Positions 9,332 through 23,450 of a stretch of 32,000 nucleotides of DNA are shown piece by piece; position 1 is the first letter of the stretch; every line of letters begins with the position of its first letter. The notes beneath the pieces were generated by a model. It had not been told where the DNA came from. It made no database searches and worked only from the letters and a program-made list of their open reading frames with translations. The position numbers and the translations under genes were made by a program. The stretch covers positions 30,001 to 62,000 of the forward strand of contig NZ_QLIR01000003.1 in assembly GCF_003428155.1 (NCBI RefSeq), given 5' to 3'. Source of the stretch: Fastidiosibacter lacustris. Its GTDB lineage: Bacteria > Pseudomonadota > Gammaproteobacteria > Francisellales > Francisellaceae.

Positions 9332-10687
9332 ATGATTACGAATGAATATGTATTTGGTTGTAAGTATTATCCTTGCAATAACCGTAAAGTATTAACTTAT
9401 CTTAAAAACAAGTATAAAGGTCAATCAGGATTATATTTAAAAAAGCAACAGCAGTTTGTTGTTGCACCTAAAGGTGGAAAAATTATTATGACGGCCTTAT
9501 TGGCTTCACATTATAAGCATTTACTGATTGTGAGTGACCAAGTACCTGACATAGAGAATGATCAAGAATCAATTTGGATATGCCTTATCATCGCAGGTAA
9601 AGTATTGTCAATAGGGTCAAGTATTCCCTCATCAAATAAGAGTATTGATGCGGATGATATTGAATGTTCTGGCGATTTCTTTATGGAACCTGATTCCATA
9701 TCTGATTTCTTACCTCACATTATACATTATATAAAGAGCCTAGAAATATCTAATTTTAAAACTGTTATAGATATACGAGATCCTCAAAAATTAGCACAAC
9801 TGGGTGTGAGTAATGATGATTTAACTTCTAATTTATCTATGAGTAAACTCTTGAATGATATAAATCAGTGGAAGTCTTCAAGTAAAAATAAATACACATC
9901 GCATCTTATAAAACAAGAAAAGTCTAAGTTTGTAAAGTTCGTATTACCGATTACTTTTTTAGCTGTTTCATATTATGTGTATACATTATATGTAAAATAT
10001 GAAAATGAGCGCTTAGCTGAGATTGAAAGACAAAAACTTTTAGTTTTGAAAAAAGAGCAAGAAGCAAAAGAGCAGATAAGGCAATACAATCTTTTTATAG
10101 AACATCTGAATAAAGATATTGCTTATTATAATCTTTCGACTCTGATAGAAAGTTTACCAAAATTTGTATACTTGTCTGCAGGATGGTACTTAAGTAGTGT
10201 TGTTTTAAAGAAACCAAATTTCAAAACATATTCATTATTGTATAATAGAGAAGATTATTCAGGATTAGATTATGGTATCAAACTTTCTGAGGCGTTAGGT
10301 GCAATAAATAGGACACAATCACCAGATAATAGTCAAATTCTATTGGACATACTTGTGCAGAATAAAGTAGAGAGTTACAACCTAACAAAAGAAATGTTTG
10401 AAAACGTTACTGAGCGACAAATTCATTTAAATGATCTCATAACACAAATCCAAATTTCCAAACTTAGCTTTAGTATTTCACCAACTAAGCAAAAAGAACA
10501 AAACCGTTATTATAAAGAAGCATTGCTATTTAATGTTACAGGCAACTCCAAACTTGACTTATTAAAGCTACGACAAATATTGTCATCGAAGTACTTCGTT
10601 ATGTTTGATGGTATTAAAATTGAGTTCAATCCAAATGAAATTTCAGTAATTAATTCATTTACTTTCCAAGGAGTTATTTATGTTTAA
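9332..10687 (+). CDS. pilO: PilO-position bitopic inner-membrane assembly protein (cytoplasmic N-domain, one TM segment, coiled coil)
   Basis: ATG lies 1 nt after the secretin stop. Single TM segment FVLPITFLAVSYYVYTLYV followed by a charged coiled-coil stretch. About 450 aa in the PilO slot. Assigned by synteny. Confidence 0.5.
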   Translation: MITNEYVFGCKYYPCNNRKVLTYLKNKYKGQSGLYLKKQQQFVVAPKGGKIIMTALLASHYKHLLIVSDQVPDIENDQESIWICLIIAGKVLSIGSSIPSSNKSIDADDIECSGDFFMEPDSISDFLPHIIHYIKSLEISNFKTVIDIRDPQKLAQLGVSNDDLTSNLSMSKLLNDINQWKSSSKNKYTSHLIKQEKSKFVKFVLPITFLAVSYYVYTLYVKYENERLAEIERQKLLVLKKEQEAKEQIRQYNLFIEHLNKDIAYYNLSTLIESLPKFVYLSAGWYLSSVVLKKPNFKTYSLLYNREDYSGLDYGIKLSEALGAINRTQSPDNSQILLDILVQNKVESYNLTKEMFENVTERQIHLNDLITQIQISKLSFSISPTKQKEQNRYYKEALLFNVTGNSKLDLLKLRQILSSKYFVMFDGIKIEFNPNEISVINSFTFQGVIYV

Positions 10688-11153
10688 GAAAAAACCTGTT
10701 GCTAGTATCTTATTGCTATCTACAGTCATTTTAGGCAATGCAAGTTCAACGCAAGAAGATATAGATTTTGATATTCAAAATCAAGTTATTCAAACTATTG
10801 GGCGATACAATCTTGAAACTCAGCTTGCTAAAGCAAAAACTGAGCTTTTTAGCCAAAAATTAAAACAAGAGCAAGTATCATCACAGTTAAAAAGTGCATC
10901 AACAACCATAGATCCATTCAAGAAAGAAGAAAAAAATCTGTATTCAGTACAAAAAATTTATGGTCTAGATGGTAACATGGTCGCATTAGTGGAGTTTCAT
11001 GACAGAATAGTTCCTGTTAAAGAAGGAGATATTATAGGCTCGGTAAAAATTAAAAAAATACAACCGGGATACGTAGTGCTGAGCGTTGGTAATGCGGAAG
11101 AGGAAAAAATAATTTATTTAGAACGGCAGTCTAAACCAGGTAATCAATTATGA
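10680..11153 (+). CDS. pilP: PilP-position small exported pilus-assembly protein
   Basis: Overlaps the upstream gene by 8 nt. Has a signal peptide. The C-terminal beta-rich block GDIIGSVKIKKIQPGYVVLSVG is like PilP/GspC-type domains. Assigned by synteny. Confidence 0.5.
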   Translation: MFKKKPVASILLLSTVILGNASSTQEDIDFDIQNQVIQTIGRYNLETQLAKAKTELFSQKLKQEQVSSQLKSASTTIDPFKKEEKNLYSVQKIYGLDGNMVALVEFHDRIVPVKEGDIIGSVKIKKIQPGYVVLSVGNAEEEKIIYLERQSKPGNQL

Positions 11154-12817
11154 TTATTCAAGAGTATAATGACTTGGCTGTAAAACCCAAACATATGTTG
11201 TTCTCAGAAATAATATCTGAGACAAATAAACGTAAGTTTGGCATATATACAACAAACCAGAATAAATTATTAGTTCTGATCAATAAAGATCACAGGCATG
11301 ATCAAAGTCTGTTAGAGCATATATCAGAATTGCGATTAAAGGCAATGAAGAGTGAGAATTTGGATAAGTCTATAACGATCACCGTTACAGAAAGTATTCT
11401 TGCTGAGGCAAATAAAAAATCTATTGATGAACGCGTTTATTCAAGCCAGAAGCTTGTTCGTGACTTTGATCATATTTTACAAGCTGCGATTCAACGTGGC
11501 GTGACAGATATTCACATCATCGTTACACCGTTAAAAGGATATGTTAAATTCAGACAATTTCGTGAATTATATGTATATCACACTTATGATCCAGAGTATA
11601 TGCACTCTTTAGTGAGTGCAATTTATAACGCTAAAGGAGAAGAGAGATCAAAGGATACAGAATTTAAACCTGAGGCGATACAACAGACTGTTATCGAGCG
11701 GTATATTGATCACAAAAGATATCGTATTCGTTTCGCTTCGCTTAATATTGAATCATCTGAAGGAGTTGTCGGTGATAATCAGGTTCGCTCATCTTACTTT
11801 ATTGCGATGAGAATATTACCAACAGAACAGCAGAGCATTAAAAGCTTAAAAGAACTTGGCTATAGTAACAAGCAGATAGAAAGACTTGAACATGCAATGA
11901 TAGCCGATTCTGGTTTGATTTTAACGGCTGGTGAGGTGAACTCAGGTAAATCGACTATGCAAGCGGCGATGCTGAAAAAAATACGTGCACTTTTTCCAAG
12001 CAAGAACATTGTCGAAGTCGGTTCACCAATTGAGTATAGTATTGAAGGTATTATACAACACCCAATTCACACAACGGTTGAAATGAGTGAGGCTGAGATG
12101 ACATTGGCGTATAGCCGTGCAATGGCACAGTTTTTGAGATCAGATGCTGAAATATTCTGTATTAATGAGATTAGAAACAAAGATACAGCCATTTTTACCC
12201 AAAGTGCGGTGCAAAGTGGCCACTTATTTATATCAACCATACACGCCCAAAGTGCACTACATATTATCAATAGGTTGGTTTCTTTGAATCTTGATCGCGA
12301 GATTTTATGCTCTCCCGGTTTTATCAGGTTACTTATTCATCAATCACTTGTTGCTATAGTCTGCAAACACTGTGCTATGAGTTATAAAGATGCAATACAA
12401 CTTGATAATTTTCAAGCTATTCTTGGTAGACTACACAAGATGTGTGAAATATATGGATTACATGAATCATCTCTTGAAAACCTAAAATTTAGAAATGGTA
12501 ACGGTTGTGAGCACTGCCATAAAGGGGTAGCTGGATTAACCGTTGTTGCCGAGATGGTTATGCCTACGGGTAAATTACTGACACTTCTTAACGACAATAA
12601 ATTCATTGATGCTTATTTATGTTGGCGGCATTCAGGGGAAAGAACATTGAAAGAAGATGCGATTCTAAAAGTGTTGAAGGGTCTTGTGTGTCCGACTTCT
12701 TTGGAACAAAGACTAGGTGCTATAGATGATACGCAAATGCTTGATTTATTAGATAGTCAGTTTATAAAAACAATTTTATATGATGCTGATATTAAGGAGT
12801 CATATAATGTTGTCTAA
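11150..12817 (+). CDS. pilQ: GspE/PilB-family hexameric secretion ATPase (R64 PilQ-like pilus assembly ATPase)
   Basis: ATGA overlap with the upstream gene. Walker A GEVNSGKST, Walker B-like AEIFCINEIRN, His box GHLFISTIHAQSA, and the tetracysteine pair CKHC...CEHC. Confidence 0.88.
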   Translation: MIIQEYNDLAVKPKHMLFSEIISETNKRKFGIYTTNQNKLLVLINKDHRHDQSLLEHISELRLKAMKSENLDKSITITVTESILAEANKKSIDERVYSSQKLVRDFDHILQAAIQRGVTDIHIIVTPLKGYVKFRQFRELYVYHTYDPEYMHSLVSAIYNAKGEERSKDTEFKPEAIQQTVIERYIDHKRYRIRFASLNIESSEGVVGDNQVRSSYFIAMRILPTEQQSIKSLKELGYSNKQIERLEHAMIADSGLILTAGEVNSGKSTMQAAMLKKIRALFPSKNIVEVGSPIEYSIEGIIQHPIHTTVEMSEAEMTLAYSRAMAQFLRSDAEIFCINEIRNKDTAIFTQSAVQSGHLFISTIHAQSALHIINRLVSLNLDREILCSPGFIRLLIHQSLVAIVCKHCAMSYKDAIQLDNFQAILGRLHKMCEIYGLHESSLENLKFRNGNGCEHCHKGVAGLTVVAEMVMPTGKLLTLLNDNKFIDAYLCWRHSGERTLKEDAILKVLKGLVCPTSLEQRLGAIDDTQMLDLLDSQFIKTILYDADIKESYNVV

Positions 12818-13949
12818 AATAACTAAATTAACTCAACGGCTTCAAACGGGATATCAAGCTATAGATGTCAGTAATGATTCTTTATATCCCAAAACAAAAG
12901 TTTATTTCTTAAAAATACAGCTATCGTCAACTAAGCGTATTGAGATTTATCAGACACTTGAAATGTTGATTAAAGTTGGTAGTTTTAACAATGCCTTAGA
13001 GCAAATTATCAGCTCTTATACCAAACATGCCAGAGCATTTCTAGAACCCAAGCAAGTGATTATAGATGTTTTAAAAGATGTCCAATATCGCCACGCTTCA
13101 TTGGGACTCAGTGCGGTAGAGGCTTTGTCACTTTATATTCCAAAGAGTGAGCAAATTATATTAAGCTCAAGTGACCAGATTACGTCAGAAGTATTGCAAA
13201 ATGTGATAGCAATCTCAAAGAGTTTAAATACATTAACACAAAAAATTTGGTCCAAGATGATCTATCCAATTATTTATATCTTTGGAATATTTGGCATGAT
13301 GTTTATTGTTCAGATTGGTTTAGTTCCGGTTATCGAATCTGCGGATGCAAGCAAAATAAGTAGCTCGACAAAAGCACTATTAATCATAAGTGAATGGTTT
13401 GTCAACTATTTCTTATGGATAGTGGCAACCTTATTGGCTTTGTTTGTTGCTATTTTTGTTAGTTTACCCAATTTAATCGGTTTAATACGTTTTAAGGTGC
13501 TTGACTATATTCCGCCATTTACGTTATACAAAAAAATATGCAGCATTCGTTTTATGATTTCCTTATCTCGCTTGCTGGGTACAAGTGGTGGGACACAAGC
13601 AAAGCCATTATCTTTAGCATTACGCAAAATTCAAAGCAATGCCAACAGGTATCTCAACATTTACCTGGAAAGACAGAAGCAATATCTTGCCGATGGATTA
13701 AGTGCAGGGGATATATTGGTGAAATCAAATATATTCCACCGTGAGTTGGCAACTTTGATTGAAATGTACGCAAAATCAAATCAGTTAGAGCGGGGACTAC
13801 ACATGATGGGTAATGAGTATTTTGAACAACAACTAGGGAGTATTGAAAGATCATTTAGTATCATTAATTTTATGTTTTTGCTTATGACAGGCGGTTTTAT
13901 TGTCTGGTTCTTAAGTGCAATGTTATCAGTTACCAGCTTATTTAGATAA
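12807..13949 (+). CDS. pilR: GspF/PilC-like polytopic inner-membrane platform protein (R64 PilR-like)
   Basis: AAGGAG lies 7 nt upstream of ATG 12807, and the gene overlaps the ATPase stop. Cytoplasmic helical regions alternate with hydrophobic segments (IYPIIYIFGIFGMMFIVQIGLV, LWIVATLLALFVAIFVSL, FMFLLMTGGFIVWFLSAML). It sits in the platform-protein slot after the ATPase. Confidence 0.68.
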   Translation: MLSKITKLTQRLQTGYQAIDVSNDSLYPKTKVYFLKIQLSSTKRIEIYQTLEMLIKVGSFNNALEQIISSYTKHARAFLEPKQVIIDVLKDVQYRHASLGLSAVEALSLYIPKSEQIILSSSDQITSEVLQNVIAISKSLNTLTQKIWSKMIYPIIYIFGIFGMMFIVQIGLVPVIESADASKISSSTKALLIISEWFVNYFLWIVATLLALFVAIFVSLPNLIGLIRFKVLDYIPPFTLYKKICSIRFMISLSRLLGTSGGTQAKPLSLALRKIQSNANRYLNIYLERQKQYLADGLSAGDILVKSNIFHRELATLIEMYAKSNQLERGLHMMGNEYFEQQLGSIERSFSIINFMFLLMTGGFIVWFLSAMLSVTSLFR

Positions 13950-13980
13950 ACGAAAATATTAACCCACGGAGGAAATAACA

Positions 13981-14553
13981 ATGAAATATATTAATCAACA
14001 ACAAACTCAGCATATCAATCTTAAAAAGCAGCGTGGAATCACCATGGTGGAATTGTTAATCGGTATCTCGGTGATTGCTATTATTGCCGTATTGATTTTA
14101 ACTTATGCATCAGGTCTATGGTCAGATGTAAAAGTTAAACAAACTAAGGATGCGGTAAGTACCATGTCCTCTAAATTAGTTGGAATATATGCTGCAACAA
14201 CCCCAGGATCAGCTGGAAGGTATGATGGTATCTCTACTGCCGATGCGTTTGACCTTGTTCCAAGCAATCTAATAAGGGGTACTGGTACTAATAGAGCGAT
14301 TATTACGCCATGGACATCGACTATTTCTACTTCTGAAATAACGGTTGCTCCATATAATAGCAATATCCAATTTGGAATTACTTTAACAGACATCCCTGCT
14401 AAAGCGTGTCGTGATATAGGTGCAGATTATCTGGGTGGTTATGCAGATGAGGTATTAGTTGGGACTGAAAAAGTTACTAAGGTATCAGAGTTAACTGCAA
14501 AGTGTAATGGTAATGATAATGGTAATGGAACTTTAGTGCTGGTATTCAGTTAA
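13981..14553 (+). CDS. pilS: Type IVb major prepilin (R64 PilS-like)
   Basis: RBS ggagg. 19-aa basic leader MKYINQQQTQHINLKKQRG followed by ITMVELLIGISVIAIIAVLIL (Glu at +5, non-Phe at +1, as in type IVb pilins). C-terminal Cys pair (AKACRD...TAKCNG) consistent with a D-region disulfide. Confidence 0.8.
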   Translation: MKYINQQQTQHINLKKQRGITMVELLIGISVIAIIAVLILTYASGLWSDVKVKQTKDAVSTMSSKLVGIYAATTPGSAGRYDGISTADAFDLVPSNLIRGTGTNRAIITPWTSTISTSEITVAPYNSNIQFGITLTDIPAKACRDIGADYLGGYADEVLVGTEKVTKVSELTAKCNGNDNGNGTLVLVFS

Positions 14554-14559
14554 AATATT

Positions 14560-16023
14560 ATGAAAAAGCGTATATCTCAACAAAGTGGTTTTGTGATTGT
14601 GCCACTCTTAATTGCAGTGGCTGTCGTTGGTATTCTTTCCATTATGTATTACTGGAAGGTACAAGATGATCATAAAAAATTTGAAGCACAAATGCTTGGT
14701 AATCAGATAGCAGAATATATATCGGCTGTTATTGGTAAAGTTTCAGGAGATCGAGCTTTAGCAGATGATACTTACACAGGATTTGATTGGCTTAAGGCAA
14801 CAAATTGTAATGATCCTTTAGATCCTTCAACGGTTCCTGGCTACTTGACCTGTACTTTCTCAATTCATTCAAGATTACTTGGCAATCAAACTGAAAATAA
14901 TTTTCAAGTTATAGTAGATCCAGTCACTGAATCTCTTAACAACAATCCTACTGCACGCAGAAAGATTACTATTACATTGCCTACAGTACGCGAGCCAAAT
15001 GGTGGAGGCATTTCCATTTCACCCTACCTTGGTTCGGTTGTTTTTAATACAGCAAGAGCTCGTTATGGTGTGGGAACAAGTATGACCAATATTGAAGAAA
15101 CAGGGCACCCAGGAGCCAGTAAGCCTTCGATTGGGAATATGCCTGTTTATCATGGTATCGCTGAGTTTAAGTATAACAAAGCCACCGCACAAATAGAGGT
15201 CGAAAGTTTTGTTACCAATACAGATGGTATTTGGCTGCAAATTGATGGTACCAACTCTATGGTGGCAGACATTAGTTATAACAAACCGGCAAGTAACATA
15301 GAACAAACTTTCAGAAAACGAGGTATTGTTAATATTTCACGTATTGAAAACTTTAATAAGGAGGATGCGAATGAGCAGGAGGCACTTGATAAGCAAGGTC
15401 CATCAGTATCAGGTTATATCGGAACTAAAGATGAGCTAGAAGATTCAATGCGAATCAATGCTTCTAAAGAAATCTATATTGGTAATCAGGTAAAGGGGCT
15501 TCATGAGAAAACCACGAATGTGCATATTTATGATATGTATTTAGGCGCTATTTCTGAAAATCAAACTTTAGGGGATATGTTTAAAAATCAAGCCCCTACT
15601 TGTAAAACGCTTATAAACGATGGTCAGGTGATAACTACAAGAGGATCGAGTTATTACATGGATATGGAAGTTAAGTTTGGACCTAGTGGAAAGTCATATG
15701 TGGAAGTTTTTGGCTCTGCAAGACATGATGGTGATTATAACAATATTGCATTTCTTGAAGTTAGAACAACTAATAACTATACTGCATACCAAACAAATGA
15801 ATCTGCAGAATGGCATGGTGGAGTTATCGTGATTGCAGCAGTTATCAATTATCCTACTGGTTTTCATAAAGGAGGAATAACAATAAATCATAAAGACCTT
15901 TTTACTACTAGAATACCAAATAGCTCAGGTACGGAGCGAATTACGTTTACTACTCCTGGGGGAAGTCATATTGGTGGACTTAAAGCGATTGGAAATATTT
16001 ATTACTGTTCGATACCGTACTAG
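14560..16023 (+). CDS. pilV: PilV-like large minor pilin / putative tip adhesin, copy 1
   Basis: Begins 6 nt after pilS. Prepilin-like N-terminus MKKRISQQSG-FVIVPLLIAVAVVGIL. At 487 aa it is like R64 PilV. Paralogous to the next gene over about the first 340 aa. Confidence 0.62.
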   Translation: MKKRISQQSGFVIVPLLIAVAVVGILSIMYYWKVQDDHKKFEAQMLGNQIAEYISAVIGKVSGDRALADDTYTGFDWLKATNCNDPLDPSTVPGYLTCTFSIHSRLLGNQTENNFQVIVDPVTESLNNNPTARRKITITLPTVREPNGGGISISPYLGSVVFNTARARYGVGTSMTNIEETGHPGASKPSIGNMPVYHGIAEFKYNKATAQIEVESFVTNTDGIWLQIDGTNSMVADISYNKPASNIEQTFRKRGIVNISRIENFNKEDANEQEALDKQGPSVSGYIGTKDELEDSMRINASKEIYIGNQVKGLHEKTTNVHIYDMYLGAISENQTLGDMFKNQAPTCKTLINDGQVITTRGSSYYMDMEVKFGPSGKSYVEVFGSARHDGDYNNIAFLEVRTTNNYTAYQTNESAEWHGGVIVIAAVINYPTGFHKGGITINHKDLFTTRIPNSSGTERITFTTPGGSHIGGLKAIGNIYYCSIPY

Positions 16024-17503
16024 CTTGTTAAGCCAGCAAGGCTTTTCAATCTTTTCACTTCTTATTACTGTTTTGATTATGGGCATTCTTTTGTCTGGCT
16101 ATTACTGGAAAGTGCAAGATGATCAAAAGGGCATCGAAGCGAATACGTTAGGAAACCAGATTGCTGATTATGTGTCTGCCGTGATAGCCCGTGTTTCTCA
16201 AGATAGAAATCTTGATACCAATATCATATATTCAGGGTTTGGCTGGCTTAAGGCAGCTACATGCAATAGCGATGGCAGCGGTAACCCGCATGGTGGCTAT
16301 TTGCCGTGTGGTTATAAGATCAACTCGCGTTTATTAGGTGATCAAAGCGAATTAGATTTTACAGTGACTCTGACTGATTTTGTTGATCACTTGAATAATA
16401 ATCCAACGGCGCGCAGGCAAATTATGATTAGTATTCCTCAGATATATGAAACTAATCGTATAGATCTTTCAGCGCATTTGGGTGCGGTAGTGTTTAATAC
16501 GGCAAAGGCACGCTATGGACTTGGCACCCATATGACGAATATTAATGACACACATCTCCCAGGTCCAAGCATTCGTTCTGCGGCAAATGTAGCCACTCAT
16601 CATGGTATTGCAGATTTTAAATATAATAAAGAGACTGCAAAAATCGTCGTTGAAGCACTTGTTACCAATACTGATGGTATTTGGTTACAGATTGATGGTT
16701 CTAATTCTATGGTGGCAGATATCAGTTATAACAAACCCAATCCTCTAATAGAACATACTTTTAGTAAAAGAGGTATTGTTAATGTGGCAAGGGTAGAAAA
16801 TTTTAATGAAGTTGATAAAAAAATACAGGAATCATTAGATAAATTTGGACCCTATTTTTCAGGTTATACCGGGGATAAAACTAAAACATCGCTTGAAAAC
16901 TCGATGCGAATCAATGCCTCTAATAATATCTATTTAGGCAATCAGCATCGTGGTTTAAATCAAAAAAAGACGAATATTCACGTTTATGATCTCAACCTAG
17001 GCAGTATGGGAGGAGAGAATCTTCATGCACTTTTTAAAGGAACAACACCGGTTTGTAGAGAAATGCCTACTTTTCCGATTACTTTACCAGTATTGCTGCC
17101 AACAGGACCAAATGGTAAGGTGTTTGTGGTTTTTTCAGGTACGATTCGGCATTTATCTACGGCTTTTAGTGCATCTGCGACGTTATCGATGGTAGAAAAT
17201 ACAAGTATAAAGCCTGTCAATACTTATTCATCACCAGCAGTATTAAGTCCAGTACCACCAGTGCCTGGATTAGAGCTATTTCCAAATACAATCACTGTTT
17301 TTCATATGATGACATTGGATAAGCTAACCAAACCATTCGAGGCTTTAGAACTATTGATTGATAACAACTTAATTAATAATAGCAATTTAGTAGCTGACTA
17401 TTTTAAGAATATAAATGTTGCCTTATGGCTTCCTGTAATGTTTCCAATGCTAAATATGATCCCTGTCCCTGGAAGTTTTAGATATTGTTACACATCCCAT
17501 TAA
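15971..17503 (+). CDS. pilV: PilV-like large minor pilin / putative tip adhesin, copy 2, with an unrelated C-terminal domain
   Basis: ...LLSQQG-FSIFSLLITVLIMGIL followed by long colinear similarity to copy 1 (YYWKVQDD, LGNQIA.Y.SAVI, NNNPTARR, VVFNTA.ARYG, VTNTDGIWLQIDG.NSMVADISYNKP, SMRINAS). The start is uncertain: TTG 15971 or GTG 15974 after gggggaag (overlaps copy 1 by about 50 nt), or TTG 16025 just after the copy 1 stop. Confidence 0.58.
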   Translation: MVDLKRLEIFITVRYRTSLLSQQGFSIFSLLITVLIMGILLSGYYWKVQDDQKGIEANTLGNQIADYVSAVIARVSQDRNLDTNIIYSGFGWLKAATCNSDGSGNPHGGYLPCGYKINSRLLGDQSELDFTVTLTDFVDHLNNNPTARRQIMISIPQIYETNRIDLSAHLGAVVFNTAKARYGLGTHMTNINDTHLPGPSIRSAANVATHHGIADFKYNKETAKIVVEALVTNTDGIWLQIDGSNSMVADISYNKPNPLIEHTFSKRGIVNVARVENFNEVDKKIQESLDKFGPYFSGYTGDKTKTSLENSMRINASNNIYLGNQHRGLNQKKTNIHVYDLNLGSMGGENLHALFKGTTPVCREMPTFPITLPVLLPTGPNGKVFVVFSGTIRHLSTAFSASATLSMVENTSIKPVNTYSSPAVLSPVPPVPGLELFPNTITVFHMMTLDKLTKPFEALELLIDNNLINNSNLVADYFKNINVALWLPVMFPMLNMIPVPGSFRYCYTSH

Positions 17504-17619
17504 AGGTATAAAAATGAAGGTTTTGGCTTCTTAGGAAAAGTGTGTTATAAGTGCTACAAATTTAAGTTTGTGAATGATTAAAACAAAAATAATAACAGCA
17601 GAGAAAGGAGATTTTAAAA

Positions 17620-18789
17620 GTGTCAAAACTAAAAATAAAAATGAAAACTACCATGCAAATGATGTTTTGTATTTTTCTTATTTTACCTTTCAATACCAGC
17701 ATGGCATCGTTGAGTGCTATTCCAACCGTTATTGTTGTACCTCAACCGATACAGCTGAATGCAAAAAGTTGGGTGTTAATGGACTTTGAAACAGGTGAAA
17801 TTATCAGTGAATTTAATATGAATGAACAACGTGCTCCAGCAAGCTTAACTAAAATTATGACGGCTTATGTGATTGCAAGTGAAATTCAACAAGATGCTTT
17901 AAAGCTGGATCAAAAAATCATAATCAGCAAACATGCTTCACAAAAGGGCGGCTCTAAAATGTTTATTAGAGATGGGGAGCAGATTACGGTTGAAAACTTG
18001 TTACGTGGAATGATGATTCAGTCAGGGAATGATGCCAGTGTTGCATTAGCCGAGTTTGTAGCAGGGTCGAGTGAGAACTTTGCTTTCATCATGAATAAAG
18101 TGGCAAAAGCTCTAGGGTTGAAAAATACCAATTTTGTTAATCCTGATGGTTTGCCGGCTGAAAATGAGCATAGTAGTGCATTTGATATGGCAGTGTTGAC
18201 TCGAGCATTTATCTATAATTACCCTGCGATTTACAAGTTGTATTCAGAAACCTCCTTTTCGTATAATAACATCACTCAACCAAACCGTAATCGTTTGTTA
18301 AAAAACTATGAAGGCACGGATGGAGTTAAGACAGGTTATACCAATAAAGCCGCTTATAATATCGTTGTATCGGCCAAACGTGATCAACAAAGACTTATCG
18401 GTGTAGTGATGGGGGCCCCCAGTGCATCGATTCGTGAAGCTGAAGCACAAAAACTTTTAAATTTTGGTTTCAGCAAATATACCAATTACACGGTTGCTAT
18501 TTCAGGCGATACGATGGAAATTGATGCAAAAAATATTATTAATGCCAAAAATAATCAAGTTCTAAAGCTTCAAACGCAAGAAACCATTACAAAAACTATT
18601 CCTAAGTCATTTGTGCCTCATATTAACAAAAAAATTATTCTGCTACCTGGATTGAAAGCACCTATTCAAAAAAATCAAAAAGTGGGTAGTCTCCACGTTA
18701 CTGCTGGTGATCACGTTATTACCGATATAGCGCTTTATGCTAGCAATGATCTAGCTGAGAAGAACTTTTTTAATAGATTATTTAGTTGA
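17620..18789 (+). CDS. D-alanyl-D-alanine carboxypeptidase, PBP5/6 family (peptidase S11)
   Basis: aaaggag lies 9 nt upstream of GTG 17620. Has a signal peptide. Carries all three active-site motifs: SLTK (SxxK), SGN (SxN) and KTG. Confidence 0.88.
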   Translation: MSKLKIKMKTTMQMMFCIFLILPFNTSMASLSAIPTVIVVPQPIQLNAKSWVLMDFETGEIISEFNMNEQRAPASLTKIMTAYVIASEIQQDALKLDQKIIISKHASQKGGSKMFIRDGEQITVENLLRGMMIQSGNDASVALAEFVAGSSENFAFIMNKVAKALGLKNTNFVNPDGLPAENEHSSAFDMAVLTRAFIYNYPAIYKLYSETSFSYNNITQPNRNRLLKNYEGTDGVKTGYTNKAAYNIVVSAKRDQQRLIGVVMGAPSASIREAEAQKLLNFGFSKYTNYTVAISGDTMEIDAKNIINAKNNQVLKLQTQETITKTIPKSFVPHINKKIILLPGLKAPIQKNQKVGSLHVTAGDHVITDIALYASNDLAEKNFFNRLFS

Positions 18790-18882
18790 TGCTTTTCCTA
18801 GTTTAATGGTGTGAACTTGTTTTAGAAAAACTTTCTAAGACGGTCGTGGGTATATTTAAATAAAATAGTGCAGTTATTTCTA

Positions 18883-18910
18883 TTAAGCTAAGAGCTTAAG
18901 TTCTTGTTTT
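18883..18910 (+). terminator. Possible rho-independent terminator after the carboxypeptidase gene
   Basis: ttaagct-aag-agcttaa (7-bp stem, 3-nt loop) followed by gttcttgtttt. The stem is AT-rich, so the structure is weak. Confidence 0.3.
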
Positions 18911-18925
18911 GTATTGCTTAAGGCA

Positions 18926-19651
18926 TTACTTTAGCAGCTGTAATAGCGATTGCAGATAGCTGAAGAAGGCTTTAGGTATATAGATGTGCATATGCTTTTC
19001 GACAACTAAATATTCAAGTAATTTATTTTTTTTACCGAGAAAGTTGTATTTCGTTTTAACATTATAAATAACATCATCAATTGTGCGGGAGCTAAGTTGA
19101 AGAAAAAATCCGACTTGTTTAGAGGTATAGCCAAGTGATAATAAATAAACTATTTCAAATTCACGTGCACTGAGTATATCGAATGTGTTGACGATGGCTA
19201 GGGAGTTTTGACCCAAATTTCCTTTATGTGAACAAAGTGGCAATAAAGATAATCTAATAGAGAGTTCAATCAACTGTTGACTATTGTTTGGCTGCCAGCC
19301 GTAAAAATTAGTGCCAATAACGTTACCATTATCTAATTTTGGTAGATTAATGCTATATATTGCGGTCAATCTATTGTTGAAGTAATGTACATCTAACATT
19401 TCAAGCGGTTTTTGGGTTGTTTCAATAAGGCGTTCTAAAAAGGCAAATTGATCCCCGTATTCGCTTATTCCATTTGGTAAAACCTCATCAGATTGTCCAA
19501 TAATGGATTCATCTACCCCAAGGAGCTGAAAAAAACTATCAGAACAACTTATATACCTTGAATTTTGGTCTCTACTATTAAGATAAATCTCTTTATTTTT
19601 CGGTAGAATAAGAGGTTTATCGTTAACCCAAATAACATTGCTATTAGGCAT
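18926..19651 (-). CDS. PAS-like sensor / LuxR (GerE)-type HTH transcriptional regulator
   Basis: SD aaagga. C-terminal LSAREFEIVYLLSLGYTSKQVGFFLQLSSRTIDDVIYNVKTKYN is a LuxR-type HTH. The N-terminal YISCSDSFFQLLGVDESIIGQSDEVLP is PAS-like. Confidence 0.78.
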   Translation of the reverse strand: MPNSNVIWVNDKPLILPKNKEIYLNSRDQNSRYISCSDSFFQLLGVDESIIGQSDEVLPNGISEYGDQFAFLERLIETTQKPLEMLDVHYFNNRLTAIYSINLPKLDNGNVIGTNFYGWQPNNSQQLIELSIRLSLLPLCSHKGNLGQNSLAIVNTFDILSAREFEIVYLLSLGYTSKQVGFFLQLSSRTIDDVIYNVKTKYNFLGKKNKLLEYLVVEKHMHIYIPKAFFSYLQSLLQLLK

Positions 19652-22703: not shown

Positions 22704-23450
22704 TTAAATTAACTCAAAGGACTTATTAGTCTCAAATGATGTATTACTTTCAAGTGCAATTTCGATCATTTTGGTTAATGCCATTTGACGTTCTTGGCTC
22801 GTGGTTACTTCTTTTGTAATAAAAGAATCTGAAACCGTGAGTAAGCATGCAGCCTTTTTACCATAAGCTTGTGCATTAGCAAATAATGCGACTGATTCCA
22901 TTTCAACTGCTTTACAACCTTGTTCGGCGTGTATTTTTATATACTCATTAAATTCTTTTCGATAAAACACATCAGTACAGTGTACTTTAGCAGAGATGAT
23001 AGGGATTTGTAATTGTTTAGCCGTTTCTGAAATATGTTTGGTTAATATTTCATTAGGTTTGATATTACGTGTTTTTTGACCTGTCACGATTTCAATATAA
23101 TCAGATTCGCAATAAGCTTCTGTTACTAAAACCACATCATATACATTAATTTCAGGAACGTATGAGCCGCAAGAACCAATGCGAATAATATTATCAACAT
23201 CATAGTGATTGAACAGCTCAGCAGTGTAAATGCCGGCACTAGGGATACCCATGCCATGTGCCATCACACTTACTTTCTTGCCTTTGTATGTCCCTGTATA
23301 GGCAAACATATTGCGTACAGTGTTAATGAGCTTAGCATCTTCTAAATAGTTTTCGGCAATAAGTTTTGCTCGAAGTGGATCACCTGGCATGATAACGGTT
23401 TTAGCAAATAAGTTTTTGTCGGTGACTTCAATATGGGGCGTTGGAATCAT
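22704..23450 (-). CDS. deoD: Purine nucleoside phosphorylase, DeoD type
   Basis: TPHI...MPGDPLRAKLIAENYLEDAKLINTVRNMFAYTGTYKGKKVSVMAHGMGIPSAGIY aligns closely with E. coli DeoD as I recall it. Confidence 0.9.
   Translation of the reverse strand: MIPTPHIEVTDKNLFAKTVIMPGDPLRAKLIAENYLEDAKLINTVRNMFAYTGTYKGKKVSVMAHGMGIPSAGIYTAELFNHYDVDNIIRIGSCGSYVPEINVYDVVLVTEAYCESDYIEIVTGQKTRNIKPNEILTKHISETAKQLQIPIISAKVHCTDVFYRKEFNEYIKIHAEQGCKAVEMESVALFANAQAYGKKAACLLTVSDSFITKEVTTSQERQMALTKMIEIALESNTSFETNKSFELI

Follow-up and report, generated by a model that had tools for sequence, protein, structure and literature searches.

What kind of protein is encoded by two adjacent genes that share a long body and differ in their distal ends, and by what route did the ends come to differ? 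The question is raised by a locus of Fastidiosibacter lacustris (assembly GCF_003428155.1, contig NZ_QLIR01000003.1, forward-strand positions 30,001-62,000), which is classed here in the Gammaproteobacteria, Thiotrichales, Fastidiosibacteraceae, and in the GTDB lineage in Francisellales, Francisellaceae. The 32,000 nucleotides (nt) of this stretch were analysed as a whole (hereafter, the window; all positions are counted within it), and the G+C content was about 35% throughout. The two genes, called copy 1 and copy 2 below, stand at the end of a pilus operon, and an earlier note on the sequence had described them as a tandem pair of PilV-like genes. We consider it fairly probable that they encode two fixed PilV-type large minor pilins, as the last genes of a chromosomal type IVb operon of the R64/PAPI-1 style, and that the products are tip pilins with different binding ends. 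The genes concerned are the following (aa, amino acids; ORF, open reading frame; the slash in a motif marks the cleavage site).

6081..13949, plus strand: upstream pilus machinery, from a 372-aa ORF to the PilR platform protein (Pfam and NCBIfam matches).
13981..14553, plus strand: pilS-type major pilin, 190 aa, with the prepilin motif G/ITMVE including Glu5 (Pfam PilS, 2.8e-06; N_methyl, 1.2e-05; Bundlin, 0.0015; TIGR02532).
14560..16023, plus strand: copy 1, large minor pilin in the PilV position, 487 aa (ORF; 100% identical to 'hypothetical protein [Fastidiosibacter lacustris]').
15971..17503, plus strand: copy 2, paralogous large minor pilin, 510 aa from TTG 15971 or 509 aa from GTG 15974 (ORF; BLASTP against copy 1).

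Copies 1 and 2 close a single string of same-strand genes (6081-17503), the order of which is the 372-aa ORF, a TcpQ-domain protein, a secretin, a PilO-like protein, PilP (TIGR03021), the T2SSE ATPase (PilQ), the T2SSF platform protein (PilR), PilS, copy 1 and copy 2. This is the type IVb gene order of R64 and PAPI-1, and the copies occupy the PilV slot (3' end, directly after pilS). An identical pilus gene order was found in the related loci L001, L002, L005, L007, L008, L010 and L011. As the reference for IncI1 plasmids we used pJIE139, whose operon carries the shufflon ORFs and rci. Equivalents of pilT (lytic transglycosylase) and pilU (A24 prepilin peptidase) were not found in the operon or in its close relatives (phmmer with PilT and PilU of pJIE139, in the window and 40 related loci). 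In distant relatives (L033-L043), a second, short PilT-like ATPase sits between pilS and the PilV-like gene.

That the two genes are homologous and in tandem, as the earlier note had it, was borne out by pairwise alignment. Both ORFs are present, and their bodies share 53% identity over 395 columns (BLASTP, E 1e-136; copy 1 aa 2-389 with copy 2 aa 16-394). Over codons 8-347 of the copies, nonsynonymous divergence (dN) was 0.37 and synonymous divergence (dS) was about 1.9, which is saturated, giving dN/dS of about 0.19; therefore, both bodies have been under purifying selection. A search of 5.8 billion clustered proteins with copy 1 matched nothing but the two copies. The parts of the C-terminal regions that are discussed below are the following.

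15601..16008, plus strand: copy 1 module, Cys348-Cys483 (from the sequence; about 10 beta strands predicted with AlphaFold2 (AF2) at a predicted local distance difference test score (pLDDT) of 34-77).
15679..15726, plus strand: copy 1 motif GPSGKSYVEVFGSARH, common to copy 2 and to the family-wide TGxxGK strand.
15727..16020, plus strand: copy 1 distal 98 aa, Gly/Thr-rich, without a match to copy 2 or to any protein found (shuffle test, database search and search of relatives).
17054..17488, plus strand: copy 2 module, Cys362-Cys506 (from the sequence; AF2 pLDDT below 50 for residues 377-498).
17105..17152, plus strand: copy 2 motif GPNGKVFVVFSGTIRH.
17153..17500, plus strand: copy 2 distal 116 aa, Pro/Leu/Asn-rich, without a detectable homologue.

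The C-terminal parts, from the first module Cys to the end (140 aa in copy 1 and 149 aa in copy 2), were compared with 2,000 shuffles. The local score gave z=4.0 and was reached by 7 of the 2,000 shuffles; it was due wholly to one 16-aa motif, GPSGKSYVEVFGSARH in copy 1 and GPNGKVFVVFSGTIRH in copy 2. For the distal parts (98 aa and 116 aa), no similarity above that of shuffled sequences was found (local z=-0.9; global z=1.4, reached by 200 of 2,000). Thus, as for the claim that the homology ends at the first Cys, the distal parts are indeed unlike each other, but the similarity continues for about 40 aa past that Cys, through the GPxGK...RH motif. The word 'unrelated', which had been applied to the C-termini as wholes, is too strong: the interiors could not be aligned, but the first strand (TGxxGK) and the last strand (G-aromatic-C/S-Y) are conserved in the family. 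No match was obtained in the database search with the copy 2 C-terminus, and no credible match when both C-termini were compared with all collected relatives.

Both ends appear to be genuine coding sequence. The codon log-odds were positive in the reading frame only, the G+C content at third codon positions (GC3) was 0.18-0.28, as in pilS, and an open frame of 149 codons has a chance probability of about 8e-6 at the local base composition. An origin of the divergent ends by frameshift was rejected, the other two frames being stop-rich and tblastn and blastn giving no cross-frame or DNA match beyond the motif. A recent foreign acquisition of the ends found no support, GC, GC3 and codon usage all being native.

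The bracketing Cys residues that the earlier note had named are all present: FKNQAPTC (Cys348, nt 15601-15603) and IYYCSIPY (Cys483) in copy 1, and FKGTTPVC (Cys362, nt 17054-17056) and FRYCYTSH (Cys506) in copy 2. In an alignment of 12 sequences, the module edges are conserved, namely the strand after the first Cys (TGxxGK...G) and the last strand (G-aromatic-C/S-Y-x-P); thus, the two modules share a frame although their interiors cannot be aligned. Every aligned member has a Cys pair in the N-terminal domain, and the modules hold 0, 2 or 4 Cys. A Cys located 3-12 residues from the C-terminus is always paired with an upstream module Cys (copy 1, copy 2 and the relatives P0003, P0006-P0010 and P0012). 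The module is free of Cys in three members (Fangia L001, L011 and P0005), and P0004 has a local CxxC only, with no terminal Cys. This pairing and co-occurrence across the family agree with the earlier proposal of a disulfide bracket, and the bracket is probably a real disulfide, as judged from the pattern of residues. The IncI1 PilV and the relatives of alignment A5 (the Shufflon_N-positive clade, see below) show a 2+2 Cys pattern, whereas the F. lacustris copies have one Cys pair around the whole module.

How the interiors came to differ may be considered at this point. Under the reading that we prefer, the genes were duplicated and the module interior then diverged. Alternatively, the interiors might have been swapped in by non-homologous recombination, as a cassette replacement between the conserved edge strands; we regard this as unlikely. 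In its favour, the distal parts (98 and 116 aa) are unrelated by the shuffle test, their compositions differ (Pro/Leu-rich in copy 2 and Gly/Thr-rich in copy 1), beta strands were predicted with AF2 for copy 1 and nothing for copy 2, and relatives exist with quite different C-terminal domains (phage tail collar in 4 of 59; ends like that of IncI1 PilV in L026 and L027). However, the sliding-window identity falls stepwise (0.60, 0.41, 0.27 and 0.16) across copy 1 residues from about 300 to about 345, a stretch of about 45 codons, before a partial recovery at the motif, so that there is no sharp junction. Both module edges and the Cys pair have been kept, GC, GC3 and codon usage are native in both ends, and no donor sequence was found in the databases searched.

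The assignment of both products to the pilins is based on their N-termini, for which the following features were noted.

14560..14589, plus strand: copy 1 leader MKKRISQQSG, with predicted cleavage after Gly10 and a mature start FVIVP (Pro at +5), as aligned with relatives bearing QxG/FxLxE.
14806..14853, plus strand: conserved pair Cys83...Cys98 in the copy 1 pilin domain (Cys98 and Cys113 in copy 2), invariant columns in alignments A1, A3 and A5.
15971..16042, plus strand: copy 2 predicted leader MVDLKRLEIFITVRYRTSLLSQQG, 24 aa, with cleavage after Gly24 and a mature start FSIFS (Ser at +5), from the alignment.

Both N-termini have the features of a class III signal peptide, namely a basic leader, Gly at -1 and a hydrophobic alpha1 helix (copy 1, MKKRISQQSG/FVIVPLLIAVAVVG; copy 2, ...RYRTSLLSQQG/FSIFSLLITVLIMG). 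The leader of copy 2 is long and basic, like those of the family relatives and of type IVb prepilins. AF2 models were built from a 59-sequence alignment (mean pLDDT, 68.7 for copy 1 and 64.6 for copy 2), and the long alpha1 helix was predicted with confidence (residues 13-63 in copy 1 and 25-77 in copy 2); the helix of copy 2 begins at Phe25, exactly after the predicted cleavage at Gly24. The alpha/beta N-terminal domain was confident up to about residue 220 in both models (in copy 1, for most of the 10-residue blocks). When the family profile was searched against the PDB sequences, type IV pilin N-termini were the only matches (E 0.002-0.02). Note that the Pfam model N_methyl is not matched by copies 1 and 2, while 36 of 59 relatives match it. 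Glu5 is absent from both (Pro in copy 1 and Ser in copy 2) and also from the closest relatives (Fangia, Cysteiniphilum and P0003-P0007), and it is present in the more distant ones (P0008-P0010 and the A5 clade). The absence of Glu5 is known for tip pseudopilins such as GspK, which takes the first (tip) position. Since Glu5 is lacking in both copies, only the first position would be possible for either of them.

The connection with PilV was approached through the relatives. A profile search of 1.84 billion representatives gave 75 relatives at E<1e-3, 13 of them below 1e-10. Among 59 relatives, 36 have N_methyl, two have a weak Shufflon_N match, and four carry a terminal phage tail collar domain. 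The close relatives are likewise placed after pilS, in operons whose gene order is identical, and conjugation genes lie beside these operons; the neighbours include DotI, DotH and TrbI (Fangia hongkongensis), DUF genes of the PAPI-1/ICEclc type (L005), and TrbI, a coupling protein and a MobA relaxase (L008). A metagenome scan gave 33 loci, the family proteins of which match the close-clade profile over the first ~250 residues (E 1e-19 to 1e-39). The gathering score of Shufflon_N was reached by 7 of 10 such proteins and narrowly missed by an eighth, in all cases through the second half of the model, and the C-terminal halves of these relatives are 33-44% identical to IncI1 PilV residues 264-476 (E down to 3e-32), including the shufflon-variable end. 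When the close clade (A3) was compared with the Shufflon_N-positive clade (A5) by hhalign, the probability was 99.9% (E 6.5e-37, 228 columns, copy 1 residues 2-267); thus, one clade of PilV has its pilin-type body in common with the F. lacustris proteins. The link to PilV, as read from these alignments, is indirect but solid for the N-terminal domain (copy 1 aa 2-267), and it does not extend to the last ~220 residues. The term 'PilV-like' in the earlier note is thus justified by the place of the genes behind pilS in the operon and by an N-terminal domain held in common with Shufflon_N-positive relatives, but not by any direct match to Shufflon_N or to the NCBIfam PilV model. The pair is best filed as PilV-type tip pilins that owe their diversity to tandem duplication and not to a shufflon, in a remote subfamily that escapes the models.

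Two observations on relatives may be added here. In a tblastn search against 72,556 plasmids, one match was obtained (E 1e-3, copy 1 aa 74-321), to a gene annotated as pilV on the Pseudomonas plasmid pBASL58 (L003 11795-13110; 314 aa); a separate 43-aa coding sequence annotated as 'prepilin-type N-terminal' precedes it, the match begins upstream of the annotated start, and as recorded the gene seems to have been split or to contain a frameshift. In L026 (2710-5941) and L027 (5668-9118), the family N-terminal domain is joined to a C-terminal half like that of IncI1 PilV (33-44%, including the shufflon-variable end); the genes stand in tandem pairs, no Rci homologue lies closer than about 5 kb, and they show domain mosaicism in PilV-like proteins.

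By what steps the two proteins might act can be outlined from the nearest systems. Binding to the lipopolysaccharide of the recipient has been described for the C-terminal ~97 aa of PAPI-1 PilV2 and for C-terminal segments of R64 PilV (PMC5297154), and variants of TP114 PilV set the recipient range (PMC9045228). By analogy with these proteins, the disulfide-stapled C-terminal module of each F. lacustris copy would be its binding surface. Both proteins would be processed by a prepilin peptidase encoded elsewhere, and each, without Glu5, would prime the pilus and stay at its tip, in the manner of the GspK-type pseudopilins. The pili would then have one or the other of two fixed specificities, or their tip would be a mixed complex. 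This outcome would resemble that of shuffling by Rci in IncI plasmids, but it would be reached through gene duplication and divergence of the module interior.

The likeness to the PilV of IncI1 and IncI2 (R64 and TP114; also pilV/rci of Salmonella Typhi SPI-7) consists in the last place of a pilL-to-pilS operon, a constant body and an alternative end of about 100 aa, and in the family relatives that carry the Shufflon_N C-terminal half and IncI1-like ends. The F. lacustris pair differs in having no Shufflon_N match, recombinase, inverted cassettes or Glu5, and in consisting of two complete genes on one strand of a chromosome with no tra genes in view. PilV2 of Pseudomonas aeruginosa PAPI-1, compared by its description, also stands last in a related pil cluster, as a fixed minor pilin that has no shufflon (PMC5297154), and the relative P0003 (L005) adjoins transfer genes of the PAPI-1/ICEclc type; however, PAPI-1 has a single pilV2, whereas F. 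lacustris has two paralogues with different ends. Tandem phage tail-fibre paralogues and duplicated adhesin tips are similar in the conserved body, the divergent distal module and the adjacency of the genes, and the weak fold matches of copy 1 are to tail fibres and to C1q/TNF-like jelly rolls; this likeness is an analogy only, the fold matches being below significance and obtained with a low-confidence model.

Several observations weigh against the reading of the pair as PilV-type tip adhesins. Neither copy has any Pfam or NCBIfam match at E<=0.01, including Shufflon_N (PF04917) and the NCBIfam PilV model, and the latter is matched by none of the 59 relatives. The comparison of IncI1 PilV (pJIE139) with the family was negative in BLASTP and gave a probability of 1.3% in hhalign. 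An A24 prepilin peptidase was not found in the window (Pfam scans of ORFs of at least 100 aa, and phmmer with two A24 queries); in the Pfam scans, the ORF at 22704-23450 and the other annotated ORFs fell in non-A24 families or in none. The AF2 model of the copy 1 module is beta-rich and of low confidence (pLDDT 34-77), and for the copy 2 module nothing was predicted (below 50). With Foldseek, none of the PDB matches reached E<0.01, and the weak top matches were the lambda gpJ fibre and TNF/C1q-like jelly rolls; against viral structures, tail fibres and C1q-domain proteins were matched (E 4e-4 to 1e-3) with TM-scores of at most 0.22 and a low-confidence model, and these are to be taken as hints only. 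The ATG of copy 1 itself has no Shine-Dalgarno (SD) site; neither copy has an ATG before the helix with a clear SD site, which only the non-ATG start of copy 2 has. The pair is known from one genome only. Finally, no conjugation genes were found within the window, and the operon is chromosomal; the adhesin role and the parallel with recipient specificity that the earlier note had drawn would be a matter of analogy.

A different role has also to be weighed, in which the copies would be minor pilins of assembly and retraction (initiators like TcpB and CofB) or docking platforms for a secreted partner, mechanically distinct from each other and not adhesins. TcpB and CofB are tip-located minor pilins of several hundred residues, with a pilin domain and beta-rich C-terminal domains; they keep Glu5 and are single-copy. 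The similar size of the copies and the want of any other minor pilin in the F. lacustris operon fit such a role, as does the absence of Glu5, which would suit a subunit that primes the pilus. On the other hand, no sequence or fold match to TcpB or CofB was found (PDB sequence search and fold search), and a conserved body with hypervariable, Cys-stapled ends across a family is typical of receptor-binding proteins. TcpB of the toxin-coregulated pilus (TCP) of Vibrio cholerae and CofB of CFA/III of enterotoxigenic Escherichia coli are each the sole minor pilin type of the operon (PMC5207764, PMC7248040). Relatives of the F. lacustris proteins bear PilV-type adhesin ends, and priming and adhesion are compatible. 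We thus consider a role restricted to assembly or docking rather unlikely, and we retain the reading as tip pilins with different binding ends.

For the start of copy 2, the in-frame candidates are TTG 15971, GTG 15974, TTG 15989, TTG 16025, TTG 16073 and ATG 16079, of which only the first two follow an SD-like site.

15958..15965, plus strand: GGGGGAAG, which resembles an SD site and lies within the 3' end of copy 1; TTG 15971 follows after 5 nt and GTG 15974 after 8 nt (anti-SD duplex, -8.4 kcal/mol).

The pairing energy of this site is comparable with those of pilS (-9.5), dacA (-8.7) and pilP (-8.0 kcal/mol), and the anti-SD pairing is near zero at the other starts (+0.3 for TTG 16025 and +0.6 for ATG 16079). 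The overlapping start after gggggaag, which was one of two options offered before, is thus the best candidate, and copy 2 most likely starts at TTG 15971 or GTG 15974, to judge from the anti-SD pairing. The accompanying statement that copy 2 has no ATG was wrong, because an in-frame ATG exists at 16079, within the hydrophobic helix, and is used by NCBI. The NCBI model (474 aa, ATG 16079) removes the G/F prepilin site and 12 residues of the conserved helix, and its start is probably mis-called.

From the favoured start, copy 2 overlaps copy 1 by 53 nt, and copy 1, in frame with pilS, begins 7 nt (two codons) past the stop of the latter; promoter and terminator signals between the genes were not above those of shuffled sequence in the scan. 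These spacings and the lack of such signals point to co-transcription, and the two genes are likely co-transcribed and translationally linked, copy 2 being translated, as we would have it, from TTG 15971 or GTG 15974 behind the SD site in copy 1. A decaying duplicate, unexpressed or non-functional and with a drifting C-terminus, would account for the want of an ATG before the helix and for the shortened NCBI model, and also for the C-terminal pLDDT below 50, the lack of any homologue of the end and its unusual composition. We hold this improbable, since the frame of 510 codons is intact, the open tail of 149 codons has P of about 8e-6 with codon usage positive in the reading frame only, the dN/dS of the body is about 0.19, the G/F motif, both N-domain Cys, the edge motifs and the terminal Cys have all been kept, and a strong SD site stands at the right spacing.

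Whether the two ends are alternatives of an inversion system was also examined. No sfx-like inverted repeats were found in 13000-19000, where the repeats are imperfect (at most 89% complementary and at most 41 nt) and chance-like. No recombinase was found in the window; phmmer with pJIE139 Rci gave no homologue there or in the 40 related loci, and minus-strand cassettes were absent from the locus. Since there is neither an Rci-type recombinase nor sfx-like repeats, the two variants are fixed genes, as the earlier note had suggested; the inverted cassettes and nearby recombinase of a classical shufflon, which the note had named as refuting finds, were not seen. A fossil shufflon, that is, an ancestral Rci inversion system that lost its recombinase and froze, is suggested by the shufflons that classical PilV genes carry (PMC9045228, PMC5430464; also the annotation of L004), but both genes are full-length, on the same strand and with an N-terminal body of their own, as expected of a duplication and not of inverted 3' cassettes, so that this origin, rejected like a working shufflon for want of an Rci homologue (window and 40 related loci) and of sfx-like repeats, is very improbable.

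Tandem arrays are not confined to F. lacustris. With the family hidden Markov model, they were found in 9 of about 36 distinct loci, namely the window, L008, L012 (three copies), L013, L016, L019/L021, L026, L027 and L036. The pair of L008 (GCA_024208055.1, JAMBMW010000014.1, 10001-13047) consists of P0006 (480 aa) and P0012 (529 aa), which are 37% identical and without Glu5, and it lies in the identical slot after pilS inside a conjugative element (TrbI, coupling protein and MobA relaxase). In most arrays, the C-terminal ends can be aligned, with 41-78% identity over the last 130 aa; the F. lacustris pair thus stands at the divergent extreme of a recurrent pattern. In L016, and between copies 2 and 3 of L012, the homology stops before the end, and in the L019 and L021 pairs the last 130 aa are without similarity, the ORFs of L019 running off the contig. 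No description of tandem type IVb pilV paralogues was found in the literature searched, which was a limited library and makes this a weak negative. As for L012 (2590-12430; metagenome contig Ga0213822_1000129), directly behind the three PilV-like genes stand three genes of another family, also in tandem and paralogous (527-552 aa, 25-34% identical to one another, no Pfam match), and the 3+3 arrangement could reflect cognate partner pairs.

The surroundings of the operon were also inspected. The flanks are ordinary chromosomal genes, with PBP5/DacA, a LuxR-type regulator, ClpB and metabolic genes downstream. The regulator (LuxR/GerE-type, 18926-19651, minus strand) is convergent and lies about 1.4 kb downstream of the operon, past dacA. 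No tRNA genes were found in the window (tRNA scan), and thus there is no obvious island boundary. At 2190-5357, about 700 nt upstream of the operon, there is a gene for an M66 metallopeptidase of 1055 aa (Peptidase_M66, 3e-46; TagA lipoprotein domain, 1e-24), a StcE/TagA-like mucinase. The overlapping NHL-repeat ORFs at 186-1562 and 1510-2184 are maybe one gene broken by a frameshift or a sequencing error. In Vibrio cholerae, tagA lies near the tcp genes in the pathogenicity island, and the placement of the M66 gene here is similar. By this analogy, the M66 gene beside the type IVb operon may mark a colonisation island. Because the operon is chromosomal and adjoins the StcE/TagA-like peptidase, the target of the pilus may, as a speculation, be a host or a surface instead of a mating partner.

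PilV-type tip pilins decide which cells or surfaces are gripped by a type IVb pilus and, on plasmids, which recipients are mated with. A wider proposal can be put forward only tentatively: recombinase-free tandem arrays of two or three PilV-type tip genes, each with its own Cys-stapled module, might be a widespread and undescribed alternative to the shufflon, and the F. lacustris system might derive from a conjugative element and have become, by domestication, a chromosomal colonisation pilus beside a StcE/TagA-type mucinase, with two folds absent from the databases. As for the annotation, the analysis defines a PilV-related N-terminal domain family that the current Pfam and NCBIfam models miss, and it corrects the probable mis-annotated start of copy 2. 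The two orphan Cys-bracketed modules may represent new adhesin folds, and they come from a relative of Francisella-like bacteria that has been little studied. In textbooks, several specificities are reached by way of the shufflon; a second route, through complete tandem paralogues, is suggested by this locus and about one quarter of its relatives, and it would allow the specificities to be displayed simultaneously instead of alternating clonally.

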